In this document: positions 2,843 to 63,922 of the stretch, piece after piece
Numbering within the stretch: position 1 is the stretch's first letter
Layout of the letters: each line of letters opens with the position of its first letter
Origin: Octopus vulgaris
Lineage: Eukaryota
DNA length: 64,000 bases
Assembly: GCA_951406725.2 (NCBI GenBank)
Contig: OX597840.1
Coordinates: 17,918,001 to 17,982,000 of the forward strand
Direction of reading: 5' to 3'
The notes under the pieces: generated by a model
Told to the model about the DNA's origin: nothing
What the model saw: the letters and a program-made list of their open reading frames with translations, nothing else
The model's database searches: none
Position numbers and translations under genes: made by a program

Positions 2843-3852
2843 AAATTATTATTTTATTGTCTTTGCACAACTTCTAACACTAGAGTTGTACCATGGTGTT
2901 AACTGTTCACTATCAGTGAACTAAGTTAACACCCCTAATTTTTTGAGCACCTTCCAGAGTATTCGAGTGGTTCCAAGCAGTGCTGTTTCCTGCAAGTGCT
3001 CCACCCTTATTGCAGCCCCTATTTGTTCCATGTACTTCTCAAGATTTTTACTCACTGTTCCCAGGGCTCTGACAATTATTGGTACTACTACCACCTTTTT
3101 CAGCAACCACAACTGCTTAACCTCCCAAGCTAACCTGTCATATCTATCAACTTTCCTTTCTTCCTTATCGTATACCTTGTTGTCAGCTGGGCATCCTATA
3201 TCTATGATCCAACATAGTTTGTTTTCTTTCTCAATTAACACTATGTCTGGTTTCCTATTCTCTATCTCATGGTCGTACTGAATCATAAAATCCCATAGCA
3301 TCTTTGCATTATTATTTTTGATGATGCCTTTGGGTTTATGTTTGTACCACTTTTTTACTCTGTCAAGTCCATACTTGTTGCAAAGTGTCCAATGGATAAG
3401 CCTGTCTATATTGTCGTGATGTCTCATATTTTTTCTGAGCTAGTGGCATACATTGAGTGATAATATGCCATACGGCTTCACCATTTTGTCCACAAATTCT
3501 ACTCTTACCACTTTCTGGTGTGTTGTCTATTCTGTATTTGATATAATTAGTTCTTAATGCTTGCTCTTGGGCAGCACAGATTAAAGCCTCCGTTTCTGGG
3601 TTTAAATCACATTTAGTCATTCATAGCCATCTTTTTTCTCTGTCTGTCTTATCTCCAACATCCTCATGAAATTGTACATGTATTCTTTTCTTTATCCACC
3701 TATTTCCATTTTCATTCATTTTCAAGTGTTTGTACAGTGCTTTCTCTTTGCAATCTTCCATCCAACACAAACTTGACCTTCTTACTTCCAATAGTAGCAG
3801 TTTTGTGGCATTTTTTACATAGCATGCTATGTTGTTTTCTTTTACTCTAATG
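2843..3852 (-). mobile_element. R4/Dong-clade non-LTR retrotransposon, degenerate Zn-knuckle + restriction-like endonuclease (subfamily B)
   Basis: ORFs 3363-3620 (ETEALICAAQEQALRT...RICG..EAVWHI) and 2921-3427 (RHDNI..LIHW...LWDF...RKPDIV...IIDIGCP...PIIVRALG), joined by a frameshift. Confidence 0.85.
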
Positions 3853-3854
3853 CT

Positions 3855-4450
3855 GAGTTTCGGATGCCGAGGTGGAAATCCACGCCACCATCTCTTCAGT
3901 TATCCAGCCATCGGAAAAATGCTATGGAAAATGACCATTATACAAAGGGAAATTACTGTGTGATTGACCGCTATTAAGACAAAAGAGCTTTTTGAATAAC
4001 AGCTAAGTAAGGAAAGGGGGTAAAAAGTTCATAGTATTCACATAAGCGCGCCTGGTTTTTCTTGTGCTTGTGTGTATATAAACGTGTGTATGAACTTTTA
4101 CAGTGTGCACGAGTGTGTATGTGGGTTTGTATGTATATGCATATACATCTGGCGAAAGATGTGAGTGAGGATGTGTATGTTTTCAAGTGAGGGTGGATGA
4201 AAATATGCGCCTGCACGTGGGTGTGCGGGCATACATGTGTAGGTATGGACAGACACACTTACGCGAATACTATAAAGTTTCTACCCCCTTACCTTACTTA
4301 GCGGTCATTCAAATAGCTCTTTTGTCTTAATAGTGGTCAATAACACAGTAATTTCCCTTTGTATAATGGTCATTTTTCATAGCATTTTTCTGATGGCTGG
4401 ATAAGTGAAGAGACGGTGGTGTGGATTTCCACTTCAGCATCTGAAACTCG
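3855..4450. repeat. Long inverted repeat (arms ~3855-4046 and ~4258-4450), Penelope-like, with a hammerhead motif in each arm
   Basis: The arms are diverged reverse complements around a ~210-nt spacer. Confidence 0.85.
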
Positions 4451-43931: not shown

Positions 43932-45128
43932 CAGGTTGTGTAAGAGATTTGAGGACAGATTTATGTTTATAAAAAACAGATAGATAATAACAAATAATAA
44001 CTTTATTTATCAAAAAATTATATGAAGATAAAAATAAACCTTCTTTTCTATAATGTTATTCAATAAAGCCACCTTCAGCTTCAACAACTGCTTCTGTATG
44101 AGATCTAAATCATCTACATGTTCGAATAAAGTGGTCCTGGTTCATTTTGGACATTACTCTGACTATGGCAGCTTTCAAAGAATCTTTGGTATTATGGGCG
44201 AGTTCATTGACCTCTCTCTCTCTCATCAACGCTCCACATGTAATAGTCCAATGATCTGAGATGTTAGGTGTTATGTGGTCATGAAAATTTTCAGCCATCT
44301 ATTCTTGTGTTATTAGAGCCATGTGTAATAGTGCAGAGTCTTACTGAAACACATACGGCCTTCCATTGCATATGCTGTCTATCCAGGGCTTAACAATTAT
44401 TTCCAGGACCTCAGTGAAGACGGCAGAGTTAACTCTAAGGCTTTGTGGAAAGAAGTAAGGAGGCATCACATGTCCTTTATTGCTGACAACCCCTAAAACC
44501 ATGACTGTTGCAGGAAATTTTGTATGCATAACATTTAGAACTTCAGAAGGGTTATTTCTTCTGTCATTTCTTCTGTTAACTTTTTGATCTTGGTCGAAGT
44601 TTTTCTCTCTTCTTGTTTAAGAGCCTTTTAGATCTGATGTAGTAATTTTCGTTTGCTTTTTCCGACAAAATGACCTTTTCTCATCCTATAAGACTTATAT
44701 TTGTCATCTTCGTGGACAACAATTCTGACTGTTCCTTCTGACAAATGGAGATCTTTTGCAATTGACCTCATGGACTTTCTGGGATTGTAATCAATGATCT
44801 GTTGAACTTGCTGGATAAATTCATTGTTCTGATGATTTCAGAGCGTTTAGAATGCTTTTTATGTTTTGACACTGGTGATAAATTTCCATCTTCAGTCTCT
44901 AGCACCTTATAAATTTTGTAGACGAAAGATCTGGCAATTTTAAAAATCAAGATATTTCTAATTCGCTATGCTCAGCCTTTATAACCACAGTAACAGCATG
45001 CCTCTTCATTTCTTGAGTAAGATGAGGATCTGCCATTATTATTTTCTGAAACAAAGATTATACAGAGTTAGCAAGAAATGCAGCAATGACCCCAGAAAGG
45101 TATGTCCTCAGATCCCTTATACACCCTG
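43932..45128 (-). mobile_element. Full-length decayed Tc1/mariner superfamily transposon (maT/DD37D-like)
   Basis: TA-flanked TIRs CAGGTTGTGTAAGAGATTTGAGGACA / TGTCCTCAGATCCCTTATACACCCTG. Transposase remnants TKFPATVMVLGVVS...KPWI...PYVFQ*DSA contain stops and frameshifts. Confidence 0.85.
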
Positions 45129-46995: not shown

Positions 46996-47232
46996 ATATC
47001 TGGAATTACTGTTTGCAAGATGTGTGCGGTGGATCATCAAAGACCCTGGTATGTGATGAGGGGTCCATCATCCTTATCTACAACGTCCAAAAGGCTACAA
47101 ACAGTGCTTTTCAGAACCGATCGTTTCAAAACTTCCGAAACAGCTGTATGGGCCGGAAAGAGTGTCAGCTGAACAACATTTGCCCGGACAATAAGAGCAT
47201 TCGGCTAAAAGTCACTTATACTTGTGTCAAAG
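46996..47232 (+). CDS. Receptor gene exon A: divergent SUEL/galactose-rhamnose-lectin-like domain
   Basis: ttgcag|...AAAG|gttagg, 237 nt, phase 1-1. Translation IWNYCLQDVCGGSSKTLVCDEGSIILIYNV...NSCMGRKECQLNNICPDNKSIRLKVTYTCVK matches the SUEL pattern C..G..I.I / C.GR..C / CP....L.V.Y.C. Confidence 0.85.
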
Positions 47233-47448: not shown

Positions 47449-47817
47449 AAACCCAAAGAATAAAATCTTGCAGCCAAAGTGAACTCTCGAAACCAAAGGG
47501 CTTCATCCAGAATGAGAAATATCCTTCCATGTCTATCATTGGAGTTTGCCAATGGAAAATCCATGTTCCTCAGGAGTCTTTCATTATACTGCGTCTTCAT
47601 GATGTCATGCTTCAGCAACCATCGAAAGGGGCTTGTGCAGTTGGCTTAAGGATAGTCACTGAGAGACCATGTGAAGGCCACAACTTCACCAGTGAAATTA
47701 TTTGTAGAAGCAAACAGAGTTTTCAATCCAGATATTTTCTCGCCTGTGGTAATGTGACTGTGATGCAGGTCAGCAACACAGAAATGCACCGTTTTCGGTT
47801 TTGGATTTCTTATGAAG
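47449..47817 (+). CDS. Receptor gene exon B: CUB domain
   Basis: ttttcag|...GAAG|gtaaca, 369 nt, phase 1-1. Translation SCSQSELSKPKGFIQNEKYPS...CQWKIHVPQESFIILRLHDVML...C...LRI...IC...GNVTV...RFRFWISYE. Confidence 0.9.
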
Positions 47818-50062: not shown

Positions 50063-50685
50063 ATGGAACTGTCAAAGTACGATATTTGGGCGATTTTGCT
50101 ATTCAACTTCAAAAAAGGACGTAAAGCAGCTGAAACTGCTCCCGATATCAATGAAATGTTTGGTGAGGAAATGACCAGTGAGGGGTCAGCTTGAAAATGG
50201 TTTAAACGATTTCGCAGTGGATACCTGAGCCTTGAAGATTGTGAGCATAGTGGACACGCATCTGTCATTGACAACAATCAATTAAAGACCGTCATCAAGA
50301 AAGATCCACGTAAAACCACTCAAGAACTGGCAAAAGAACTTCTAGTTAGCCAGAAAACTGCCTGCAACCATTTGCATGCCATCAGAAAATCAAATAAGCT
50401 TGACAAATGGGTACCGCATGATTTGAATCAAAATCAGAAAATGCGCAGATATGAAATTTGCTCGTTGCTTCTTCTCTGTAACCAGATCGATCCATTTCAA
50501 GACTGTATTGTAACTTGCAGTGAAAAGTGGATTCTGTACAATAATAAAAAATATTCTTTGCAGTGGTTGGACCAAAATGAAGCACCAAAAACCTTCCCTA
50601 AACCCGAGCTCTTCAAAAAGAAGGTTATGGTGACTGTTTGGTGGTGTACTGCTGGACTTATCCACTATAATTTCTTAAAACCTGA
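50063..50685 (+). pseudogene. Mariner (DD34D) transposase pseudogene, 3' truncated
   Basis: MELSK...FKKGRKAAETA...*KWFKRFRSG...KWVPHDL...IVTCSEKWILY...KKVMVTVWW, with an in-frame stop. Confidence 0.9.
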
Positions 50686-50792
50686 GCATGTTGACTAAAG
50701 AATAATTTTTTTATAGAATTATTATCCTTACCATCATCATTTAATGTCACACTACTTCACATAAAAAATCTTGCACAACAAATACTTAAACG

Positions 50793-51125: not shown

Positions 51126-51302
51126 TACAGACATTTGCCGCTAATAAGCTGTCCTATCTTTATGATAAAAATCTAAACTGCATCGACTCTAAAGTAGGGT
51201 ACCAGACCTGGAAAGTTGACCAAGTGAACAGCCCTCACCTTAGCCATGTTTCTTCTAACCATTCCATTCTCTCAGAGACAACTAAGTTACCATTCAATGC
51301 AA
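51126..51302 (+). CDS. Receptor gene exon C: stalk
   Basis: ttcacag|...GCAA|gtgagt, 177 nt, phase 1-1, open frame VQTFAANKLSYLYDKNLNCIDSK...LPFNA. Confidence 0.75.
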
Positions 51303-51564: not shown

Positions 51565-52685
51565 ATATGTATGTATGTATGTATGCATGTATGTATGTAT
51601 GTATGTATGTATGTATGTATGTATGTATGTATGTATGTATGTATGTATGTATGTATGTATGTATGTATGTATGTATGTATGTATGTATGTATGTATGTAT
51701 GTATGTATGTATGTATGTATGTATGTATGTATGTATGTATTTATTTATTTATGTATGTATGTATGTATGTATGTATTTATGTATTTATGTATGTATGTAT
51801 GTATGTATGTATGTATGTATGTATGTATGTATGTATGTATGTATGTATGTATGTATGTATGTATGTATGTATGTATGTATGTATGTATGTATGTATGTAT
51901 GTATGTATGTATGTATGTATGTATGTATGTATGTATGTATGTATGTATGTATGTATGTATGTATGTATGTATGTATGTATGTATGTATGTATGTATGTAT
52001 GTATGTATGTATTTATGTATTTATGTATGTATGTATGTATGTATGTATGTATGTATGTATTTATGTATTTATGTATGTATGTATGTATGTATGTATGCAT
52101 GCATGTATGTATGTATGTATGTATGTATGTATGTATGTATGTATGTATGTATGTATGTATGTATGTATGTATGTATGTATGTATGTATGTATGTATGTAT
52201 GTATGTATGTATGTATGTATGTATGTATGTATGTATTTATGTATTTATGTATGTATGTATGTATTTATGTATGTATGTATGTATGTATGTATGTATGTAT
52301 GCATGCATGCATGCATGCATGCATGTATGTATGCATGCATGCATGCATGTATGTATGTATGTATGCATGCATGTATGTATGTATGTATGTATGTATGTAT
52401 GCATGCATGCATGCATGCATGTATGTATGTATGCATGCATGTATGTATGTATGTATGTATGCATGCATGTATGTATGTATGTATGTATGTATGTATGTAT
52501 GTATGTATGTATGTATGTATGTATGTATGTATGTATGTATGTATGTATGTATGTATGTATGTATGTATGTATGTATGTATGTATGTATGTATGTATGTAT
52601 GTGTGTATGTATGTATGTATATATGTATGTATATATGTATGTATGTATATATGTATGTATGTATATATGTATGTATGTATGTATG
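51565..52685. repeat. ~1.1-kb (ATGT)n microsatellite with ATGC/ATTT variant blocks
   Basis: Direct inspection. Confidence 0.98.
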
Positions 52686-52963
52686 TGGTATTTTACACAT
52701 TGCTACTTTCTGAGTTCAAATTCCGCTGAGATCAGCTTTGCCTTTCATTCCTTCGGGGTCAATAAATTAAGTACCAGCTGCATACTGGGATTGATATAAT
52801 CAACTACTCCTCCCTCAAAACTTCAGGCCTTGTGCCTATAGTAGAAAGGATTATTATTATTGTTATTGTTGCTGTTACTGATGTGGCAGCCTTCATATCC
52901 TGAGTTCAAATTTCAAGCTGACTTTGCCTTTAATCCTTGCTGGCCTTGTGGCAAAATTTGAAA

Positions 52964-54159: not shown

Positions 54160-54246
54160 CATCACCAGGGAGCGACTCGGACAACTTCAACGGGACATTA
54201 AATACAAGCAACAAAATGAAGCCATCAGTTCCTCTGTATAACTTAA
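54160..54246 (+). CDS. Receptor gene exon D: juxtamembrane stalk
   Basis: (ctt)n...cactag|...TTAA|gtaagt, 87 nt, phase 1-1; TSPGSDSDNFNGTLNTSNKMKPSVPLYNL. Confidence 0.7.
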
Positions 54247-55687: not shown

Positions 55688-55757
55688 AACTCATACTGGC
55701 AATTGGTGTACCATTGTTGGCAATCATCTTATTTGTTTCCATTGGAATATGTTACTG
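55688..55757 (+). CDS. Receptor gene exon E: transmembrane helix
   Basis: ttttgcag|...TG|gtaagt, 70 nt, phase 1-2; KLILAIGVPLLAIILFVSIGICY(W). Confidence 0.85.
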
Positions 55758-57619: not shown

Positions 57620-58262
57620 TGATAGCACCACCTGGCAAAGTCATTCAAGTCAGGAACAACAGTATTCAAGGTGGGGTTGGACAAAATTAGAGAAGAGAAG
57701 GATAATGGTGTGGATATCTCTCAACTGGAGAGTTCTGAGAATCCAGGAACACATTCTGTGGGCCCCGTCAACTTTGCTGTTTATATGAGTGGCCCAGCTT
57801 ATGTTGTTGTTGTCCACAATTACTCCCAAGTCTCTGATGTTGTTGAATGCCATGAGAGTTTCACCTGATGTTTCATGGGAGTTTCAGGGTATCCTCTTTC
57901 CCAAAGTGGATTAACTCAAATTTGTCCTCATTCAGCAGCCTATTATTCTTTTCTGCCCATTCGATGACAGCCAGTCGATCTGACTGAAGGCATGCCTGGC
58001 CATCTACGCCATTGATGACCTTCTGGATCTTGGAATCATCTGCAAAGATTCTTATGTTGCTGTGCTTGATGATGCCAGTAAAGTCATTGATATAGATGGT
58101 GAAAAGAGGTTGGCTCAACACAGTGCCTTGTGGAACACCACAACTGACTTTGACTGGGCTTGATTTTACTCTTCAACTGCAATGTGTTGGGTTCTGCCTG
58201 TCAGGAACCACTTGATCCATTGTAGTGACTTTCCAGAGACACCAATGCTGGATAGTTTTTTC
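57620..58262 (-). mobile_element. CR1-like LINE RT fragment
   Basis: SCGVPQGTVLSQPLFTIYINDF...IRIFADDSKI...IRDLGVIVD...PHLEYC. Confidence 0.9.
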
Positions 58263-62434: not shown

Positions 62435-63344
62435 GAGAAGTAAAAGAAGTAAAAGAAAGAACAATCCCGTATCAGCCAAAGATGCTGCTGTCCAGACACT
62501 GGTTTCTCGGAACATAGAAAACGTCCGACATGCTAATGGAATACTGCCCTTGCAATGCTCAGACAGACACCACCCAGCTATACAGGAAGGCTACAGTCAT
62601 GTTGCCGACGAAGTTCCGTTCCCAGAAGCAGCCAAAATGATTGACGCCACAGTCAACACTTGTGAAGCCTACACTGAGGTGGATGAAGGACAAATAGGGA
62701 CCGTCAAGCCCTTGTCCGATAGATTTCGATACCATATTGCTCGTTCTCTGCCTGCTCTGCCTGGGAAAAAATCGTCATCCAACGACGAATGGACATCCAC
62801 CAGATCACGAGGTTCTAGTAGCCGTGCTTCGATTGGTAGTGAAAATGACTATCAGAAAGCTATCTATGAAGAAATTCCTGATTATTACGAATGCAAAAAG
62901 CATCCTTCGAATTATTCTCCAAGAGTGTCAGAACCAAGTTCCGTAGAAACAGATTCAGGAATTGAATCTGAAGACAAACTAGCTCGCAGTCGTTTGGAAC
63001 GTATTCAAAATCCAACGAATCCTGGTGCTTTGCCTCCTTATAGTAATCTTAATTCTAATCTTAAAACTAATACCAATTCTTCATCGTCGTCGACGTCATC
63101 TTCGTCGTCTGGGTCTCACAAATCTCCCCCAATTCCAGCCCTCAATCCAAGAGGTGAAATTAAATCAGACGACATGTCACAAGACGTAACAGATCCTAAA
63201 TATCATGTGGTAGAAAGGAATTGCACACAGAACAATGTCGGAGAGACGAACTGTAGAGGACATTCAATCGCTAGATCTGGTGATGATGGTTTAGTGTTAT
63301 TAGAAAATGAAATATATGAGCCTTATTATCAACAGACAGACTGA
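62435..63344 (+). CDS. Receptor gene exon F (terminal): basic stop-transfer sequence and ~300-aa tyrosine-motif cytoplasmic tail
   Basis: tttttcag| at phase 2 completes TGG (W); translation RSKRSKRK...YEEI...DSGIES...NEIYEPYYQQTD*. It is a 910-nt open, non-repetitive frame. Confidence 0.9.
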
Positions 63345-63922
63345 AAATACGAGTGAATGTGTGTGATAAAATATCTGTTCTCTAATCAAGAAAACTTGCT
63401 TTAAAATACTAAAAACATCACCACCAATTTACCAATATTTCACAATGGAAAAAAAACCCTATTTCCTTCATAATTATTAAGAATTAACAGGAAGAAATTG
63501 TAAGAAGAACTGGTCAGGATTTTCATGTCACTGTTTCATAGCTTTCTTGCATTTCTTTAAAACAAAAAAAAAACATGACTGCCACGTTGATGGTGGTGGC
63601 CATGTCTGGGTTTCAAGAAGTATATTGTGTACGGCGGAAAATGCAAGGAATGAATGAATGCGGGAATGAATGAGTGTATGAATGAATAACTCAGTGAATG
63701 AATAAATATATAAAATAGAATGGAAATTATGGTGATTGGTGACAGAAATAATTGCTTAAACTAAGCAGAAATGTATCGGCTTATTGTGCCACATGCAGAA
63801 ATGCACACACATGTACACATACACACATATGCACTTCACCTCATATATATATATGTGTGCGTGTGTGTATACACATTCATATGCGTGTATATATGTATAT
63901 ATATATATATATATATAATAAA

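Follow-up and report, generated by a model that had tools for sequence, protein, structure and literature searches.

A motif-rich cytoplasmic tail in Octopus vulgaris carries a tyrosine pair conserved across a molluscan family of lectin-like/CUB membrane proteins

The locus raises the question of whether a dense cluster of short signalling motifs in a single Octopus vulgaris exon is a genuine, selected array, and which of those motifs are central to the protein. The exon, at 62435–63344 (+), lies in a window of 64,000 nucleotides, the whole stretch of contig OX597840.1 analysed here (positions 17,918,001 to 17,982,000). An earlier note listed eight motifs in its translation and read them as a Src-activating scaffold receptor with a built-in ubiquitin-dependent shut-off. 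Comparison of related sequences suggests that the tail is a real, selected motif scaffold, its notable feature being an ancient tyrosine pair and not the textbook Src motifs.

A search with the tail translation returned uncharacterised proteins from Octopus sinensis, Argonauta hians and a cluster including Sepia pharaonis, and tblastn of these homologues located five further exons. The six exons in the window have GT–AG ends and join into a frame identical to residues 25–639 of the O. vulgaris protein CAI9741834.1, hence 62435–63344 encodes the cytoplasmic side of a membrane helix. On the forward strand, the first coding exon found (46996–47232) encodes a SUEL-lectin-like domain (residues 24–103), followed by a CUB domain exon (47449–47817), an exon for the end of the ectodomain and the start of a low-confidence stalk (51126–51302), a stalk exon (54160–54246) and an exon for the transmembrane helix with a cysteine at its inner end (55688–55757). 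The last coding exon (62435–63344), preceded by a CAG acceptor and ending in a TGA stop, holds the entire 302-residue cytoplasmic tail, which is predicted to be disordered. No match to a signal-peptide exon (first 23 residues) was found within the window or 80 kb upstream. The tail and CUB exons each gave one match in the genome, where counts are lower bounds, and the gene encodes a single-copy type I membrane protein.

Several other features accompany the gene. The O. bimaculoides model (P0072) is without the short stalk exon corresponding to 54160–54246, which could reflect exon skipping or an annotation gap, and a candidate polyadenylation signal (AATAAA, 63701–63706) stands 357 bases past the stop codon. 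The intron after the CUB exon contains a mariner-type transposase fragment (50195–50698, +; a 167-residue frame matching Transposase_1, E 6e-16), and a TATG microsatellite (51566–52686, 280 copies, 95% matches) directly past the third coding exon found gives rise to long spurious open frames. A reverse transcriptase fragment was also detected (57876–58172, −; RVT_1, E 1e-6), as was a helix-turn-helix fragment weakly matching a Tc3-like transposase (44631–44837, −), and the frames at 1–663 (−) and 3366–3899 (−) resemble the C-terminus of LINE proteins by eye, two pieces having been tested without a Pfam match.

The protein is modelled as a signal peptide, SUEL-like domain, CUB domain, stalk, single helix and a disordered tail of 302 residues that contains no catalytic domain. 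The structure model was built from 29 sequences and replaced an earlier, poor three-sequence model (pLDDT 41). It shows confident domains at about residues 28–235 and a helix at 310–344, while pLDDT falls below 50 across nearly the whole tail (residues 346–400, 402–485 and 488–639), where no folded domain is seen. The ectodomain comprises two folded domains in about 290 residues. Residues 108–229 adopt a CUB fold (Z 13.3, rmsd 2.3, 111 residues aligned to the Gpr126 CUB domain), and PF00431 is found in 22 of the 29 members at E ≤ 0.01, with P0003 above the cut-off and the octopus protein below. Residues ~26–103 match four SUEL structures with a middling score (Z 6.1–6.7), including the latrophilin-3 lectin domain (Z 6.7, rmsd 2.6, 73 aligned); profile matches to CSL3 and latrophilin lectin domains (E 0.003–0.005) and a top Atlas match to a SUEL-type cluster (0.94) point the same way, so that the N-terminal domain is likely a SUEL-type lectin fold. 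PF02140 gave no score for this octopus domain and scored in one of the 29 aligned proteins, and the YGR and DPC motifs, which bind rhamnose or galactose in SUEL lectins, are absent from the octopus domain in the alignment, hence rhamnose binding is doubtful. The cysteine at the inner end of the helix is a possible palmitoylation site. A cysteine lies near the helix end in 22/26 mollusc sequences; the octopus has one there and no CxxC pair, and two cysteines are present in 4/27. Pfam matches to TMEM154 and Protocadherin were set aside, as they cover the helix region only.

All eight motifs listed in the earlier note were confirmed in one open frame on the forward strand: YSHV (62592–62603), YTEV (62670–62681), RSLPALP (62742–62762; class I SH3 ligand pattern), IYEEI (62862–62876, Y481; Src-family SH2 ligand pattern), DSGIES (62952–62969), LPPY (63030–63041), YHVV (63201–63212, Y593) and NEIY (63306–63317). 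DSGxxS is the beta-TrCP phosphodegron, LPxY a NEDD4 WW ligand and NxxY a PTB-like motif. When the 302-residue tail was shuffled 20,000 times, the share of shuffles reaching the observed count was 0.0001 for RxLPxLP, 0.009 for [RK]xLPxxP, 0.003 for YEEI, 0.017 for DSGxxS and 0.024 for three YxxV, and two of the 20,000 carried five generic motif classes jointly; the patterns were picked after the sequence was seen, hence these figures flatter the motifs. Taken singly, [LP]PxY (0.11) and NxxY (0.63) are at chance level.

Conservation relative to background is a described test for short motifs (PMC2559891, in the part available), and we applied it to six aligned coleoid tails: O. vulgaris, O. bimaculoides, one octopod-like, Argonauta and two decapod-like records. 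Across them 95 of 302 positions are invariant, and the motif-defining residues proved better kept (19/24) than the rest of the tail (76/278; Fisher p 7e-7, with positions that are not independent and three of the six sequences close relatives), which together with the low pLDDT bears out the earlier picture of a disordered tail whose motifs are under selection. RSLPALP, IYEEI and DSGIES are fully invariant (6/6), as is YSHV, and six of the 13 octopus tail tyrosines are invariant. Among the best-kept stretches is the one around Y390, the tyrosine of YSHV, where 17 of 19 positions are unchanged.

Other parts of the original list did not hold. The proposed NEDD4 site LPPY has none of its four positions invariant, occurs in one of the six coleoid tails (it is absent from the O. 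bimaculoides, Argonauta and decapod-like tails, and present in O. sinensis) and is probably a chance match, 11% of shuffles carrying the pattern. YHVV is not a fixed motif, only Y593 and the preceding PK being invariant. The ITIM-like label given to the YxxV sites is also unsupported: the ITIM consensus is given as (I/L/V)xYxx(L/V) in the part of PMC2194117 available, the pattern [ILVS]xYxx[ILV] has no match in the octopus tail, nor do ITSM, PPxY or NPxY, and no coleoid has the hydrophobic residue at −2. The tyrosine of NEIY is present in 5/6 coleoids (replaced by Cys in Argonauta) within a C-terminal LLENEIYEPYY block (63297–63329, +) whose PTB-ligand-like [ED]NxxY is common to bivalves; NxxY on its own arises in 63% of shuffles.

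A candidate LC8 (dynein light chain) site not on the original list, KDAAVQT (62478–62498, +), is coleoid-specific, with all eight positions of AKDAAVQT invariant in the six tails. Measured against LC8 site rules, which as given in the available part of PMC6607443 comprise an xQT anchor, a polar −4 residue and a disordered region, the VQT anchor, D at −4 and K at −5 fit, and A at −3 and L at +2 are poorer fits; the +2 residue is the disfavoured L in Octopus and the favoured P in Argonauta and decapod-like tails. A complex prediction of LC8 with tail residues 338–372 scored 0.05 against a mark of 0.34 and so speaks neither for nor against the site. An intronless LC8 dynein light chain frame of 89 residues occurs at G000:C25:23627325-23627594 (L002:1489-1758).

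Word-indexed homologue searches found cephalopods only; members in other molluscs surfaced when a three-sequence profile was run in a full HMMER scan (60 matches at E ≤ 0.001, 20 of which were looked up). Named matches include Solemya, Pecten, Pinctada, Saccostrea, Dreissena, Mya and Potamilus, as well as Haliotis, Gigantopelta, Aplysia, Arion, Lymnaea and Candidula. Non-cephalopod members share about 20–25% identity with the octopus protein. In an ectodomain tree the cephalopods, bivalves and gastropods group roughly by class, the pattern expected of single-copy orthologues, although the bivalves do not come out as a single clade and the tree cannot be rooted on its overlong outgroup branch. 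From their sequences the members appear to form an uncharacterised pan-molluscan family of lectin-like/CUB membrane proteins, of a known kind. Literature searches, mostly outside subscription journals and supplements, found nothing on the members (seven gene identifiers) or on mollusc transmembrane SUEL and CUB proteins, and returned unrelated papers only for mollusc CUB/ITIM/SHP2 transmembrane receptors.

The motif counts cover 27 tails: 6 from coleoids, 9 of bivalve type, 11 of gastropod type and a single weak nemertean match. Judging from their length and the range matched, the remaining HMMER matches were fragments or long multi-stretch proteins and were left out. The pattern that spans the family is a two-tyrosine cassette, Y-x-x-V-x-D followed after 12–24 residues by Y-x-E-[VI], which in the octopus (62592–62681, +) consists of Y390 (YSHVAD, 62592–62609) and Y416 (YTEV, 62670–62681), 26 residues apart. 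It occurs in 26 of the 27 tails, i.e. all 26 of the mollusc ones, and is absent only from the weak nemertean match; between 0 and 4 of 5,000 shuffles of each tail match it, the pattern having been drawn from the same sequences in which it was counted. The three members P0027, P0032 and P0034 were each retrieved through one stretch that stops short of the cassette, yet they carry it, and among three left-out matches that were read, P0043 is a further member with the cassette. The two tyrosines stay 20–27 residues apart in tails of 172 to 427 residues, with the first 43–66 residues from the membrane. Across 21 aligned full-length proteins from cephalopods, bivalves and gastropods, invariance within the tail is limited to R338, Y390, V393, D395, Y416 and E418. 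An ITAM reading of the pair was rejected, as ITAM spacing is roughly half as long.

Site 1 reads Y-S-x-V in 18/26 and site 2 Y-A-E-[VI] in 21/26 mollusc tails. In 8 of the 11 gastropod-type tails C, F or Y follows the site-1 tyrosine, which does not fit the Y-S-x-V likeness. The ITIM −2 hydrophobic residue is found at cassette tyrosines in 0/6 coleoid, 2/9 bivalve-type and 0/11 gastropod-type tails (2/26). Conservation around Y390 covers positions −4 to +8, more than SH2 sites usually span, and an SP dipeptide before site 2, present in 18/20 non-cephalopods, has been lost in coleoids. None of Csk, SHP2, Nck or Src explains this SP, the hydrophobic −4 residue or the invariant +5 aspartate.

The textbook motifs are distributed quite differently. 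Exact YEEI occurs in 0/20, DSGxxS in 2/20 and [RK]xLPxxP in 3/20 non-coleoid tails, the last in 3/9 bivalve-type and 0/11 gastropod-type tails. Bivalve-type tails contain echoes of the coleoid set, namely R[PS]LP, YxE[IL] past the cassette and a C-terminal [ED]NxxY (each 8/9), which are found in 1/11, 2/11 and 0/11 gastropod-type tails, respectively. We read the fixed tyrosine pair as the oldest feature of the family and the textbook Src motifs as a coleoid refinement. The original emphasis on a Src-activating set therefore looks misplaced, the family-wide core being the YSHV/YTEV pair that had received minor mention. Each class also has tail ends of its own. All nine bivalve-type tails (P0015–P0022, P0033) have Val as their last residue, in most cases preceded by an SDS-rich acidic run and ENExYE..SA[HK]V; this ending may be a PDZ ligand and is missing from coleoids. 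Among gastropod-type tails, P0027, P0029, P0031, P0032, P0036 and P0037 have their own conserved C-terminal block, KGIV[KR]NGIxxFE, and P0025, P0028, P0034 and P0043 have LYPLQEGRVA[ST]L[VI]S.

The YSHV/YTEV pair resembles docking sites for Csk, SHP2 or Nck more than an activating module. The coleoid tail combines the three kinds of site found in PAG/Cbp with the fixed pair, hence we propose a non-catalytic receptor that is a scaffold phosphorylated by Src-family kinases, whose ancestral pair would bring in a brake on Src signalling, either Csk or SHP2, a reading to which we give an even chance. By analogy, the best reading is a scaffold acting like PAG/Cbp or PECAM-1, not a pure Src activator. 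A partner of the SUEL-like/CUB ectodomain would cluster the protein; in coleoids a Src-family kinase would then dock by its SH3 domain on RSLPALP and phosphorylate the tail, and pY481-EEI would hold the SH2 domain of such a kinase. Phosphorylated Y390 and Y416 would bind the main effector, most likely Csk, which would silence the docked kinase in the manner of PAG/Cbp. In coleoids, DSGIES would then act as a degron and clear the receptor. The LC8 site may dimerise tails. Gastropod-type tails have no SH3 motif and mostly no YEEI-like site, hence Src docking in this form cannot be family-wide.

The available parts of the cited sources describe PAG/Cbp as carrying YEEI/V Src sites and a YSSV Csk site on one membrane tail, leading to inactivation of Src kinases, and Csk as conserved across animals (PMC3492796); Fyn and Lyn also bind PAG/Cbp via SH3 (PMC3492796, PMC3968143), and Csk also binds pY-A sites such as EPIYA, EPLYA and EGLYA (PMC3561454). 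No Csk SH2 consensus appears in the portions of PMC10016382 or bioRxiv 2020.09.06.285270 available. A tandem-SH2 protein such as SHP2 needs a fixed tyrosine pair (PMC10231330, in part), while the lack of a hydrophobic −2 residue at either cassette site counts against it. Four-residue SH2 motifs overlap among Csk, SHP2, Nck and Src, hence the partner is unreadable from sequence; Csk is our most likely candidate, at clearly below even chances, with SHP2 less probable and Nck or some other protein each a shade less so again. A stronger version would make the mollusc receptor a ligand-gated counterpart of PAG/Cbp, its cassette a dedicated Csk membrane anchor retained since the divergence of cephalopods, bivalves and gastropods, to which the classes added their own motifs (in coleoids the Src clamp, degron and LC8 site); we consider this speculative and rather unlikely.

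The alternatives can be weighed against the same evidence. A tail that mainly activates Src through SH3/SH2 occupancy, with the ubiquitin ligases beta-TrCP and NEDD4 shutting it off, would account for RSLPALP, IYEEI and DSGIES being invariant in 6/6 coleoids, each unlikely by shuffling, and the YxEV sites are possible Src SH2 ligands, the Src sites of Cbp being given as YEEI/V (PMC3492796, in part). Against this, LPPY is unconserved, the best-conserved block (17/19 around Y390) goes unexplained, and the scarcity of YEEI (0/20) and DSGxxS (2/20) outside coleoids means that Src activation with ubiquitin shut-off cannot be the core function of the family; as the main function, we regard it as unlikely. 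That the motifs are chance matches in a Ser/Tyr-rich disordered tail is very improbable. Chance probably accounts for LPPY and YHVV, and NxxY alone arises in 63% of shuffles, but for the main motifs this explanation is refuted by conservation in the sequences compared, with 19/24 defining residues invariant against 76/278 and the cassette in 26/26 mollusc tails.

Recruitment of Nck (Dock) by the pair for actin assembly, as at nephrin or PECAM-1 Y663, seems slightly less likely than Src activation. The top look-alike of the tail by features is the poxvirus protein A36 (0.86, a lead only), which has a Nck role, and acidic residues follow both sites. As far as the available part of PMC8187788 goes, the Nck SH2 domain binds pY-D/E-x-V/P and PECAM-1 pYTEV, which octopus Y416 matches at all four residues, but not PECAM-1 pYSEV. 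Most members have A or S at +1 instead of D/E. With its single SH2 domain, Nck offers no rationale for a fixed pair. The tyrosines might alternatively be unphosphorylated YxxPhi sorting signals or an extended surface for a folded partner, in a co-receptor or cargo receptor. The −4 to +8 span around Y390 would suit this, and SP before site 2 may suggest control by a proline-directed kinase, but acidic flanks and a +3 Val are more typical of kinase/SH2 sites than of adaptor sorting signals, and the SH3 and YEEI patterns alongside in coleoids point to tyrosine kinase signalling; we find it slightly less probable than Nck recruitment.

We know of no worked-out route by which Csk or SHP2 reaches the membrane in molluscs. 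A single-copy family with two invariant tyrosines offers two defined candidate phosphopeptides. Motif-rich tails as such are common; this family shows a disordered tail keeping one ancient core while gaining lineage-specific motifs, and its most ancient motifs are not those with a textbook look.

Among known systems, the N-terminal domain of the octopus protein models onto the fold of SUEL-lectin proteins (latrophilin lectin domain, CSL3, SUL-I), to which EVA-1/EVA1C also belong. CDCP1 and DCBLD1/2 are likewise CUB-containing single-pass proteins, feature look-alikes at 0.85 (a lead only) and Src-family substrates and scaffolds, but CDCP1 carries repeated CUB domains, DCBLD contains an LCCL domain, neither is listed with a SUEL-like domain, and there is no sign of orthology. 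With a single helix, several tyrosine motifs and no catalytic domain, the tail is transmembrane-adaptor-like, and LIME1 (0.82) and SCIMP (0.81) are look-alikes by tail features under the 0.9 bar, hence weak leads. PAG1/Cbp, LIME and SCIMP share with it one helix, a juxtamembrane Cys and a disordered tail in which Src sites of the YEEI type occur together with a YSxV site and an SH3 pattern of class I (PMC3492796, PMC3968143, PMC2194117, each in part). This likeness is one of motifs, no homology to such adaptors having been identified among the 60 HMMER matches, and these adaptors have tiny ectodomains and two palmitoylated cysteines, whereas the octopus protein has a two-domain ectodomain, one Cys and the fixed tyrosine pair. 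For the pair itself, the closest parallels are PECAM-1/CD31 and PD-1, which have Ig ectodomains and the ITIM/ITSM −2 residue that the octopus sites are without, but which likewise carry two tyrosine sites 23–25 residues apart: YTEV and YSEV at 23 in PECAM-1 (PMC8187788, in part), where Y663 matches octopus YTEV over four residues, and two SHP2-related tyrosines at 25 in PD-1 (PMC7078208, in part).
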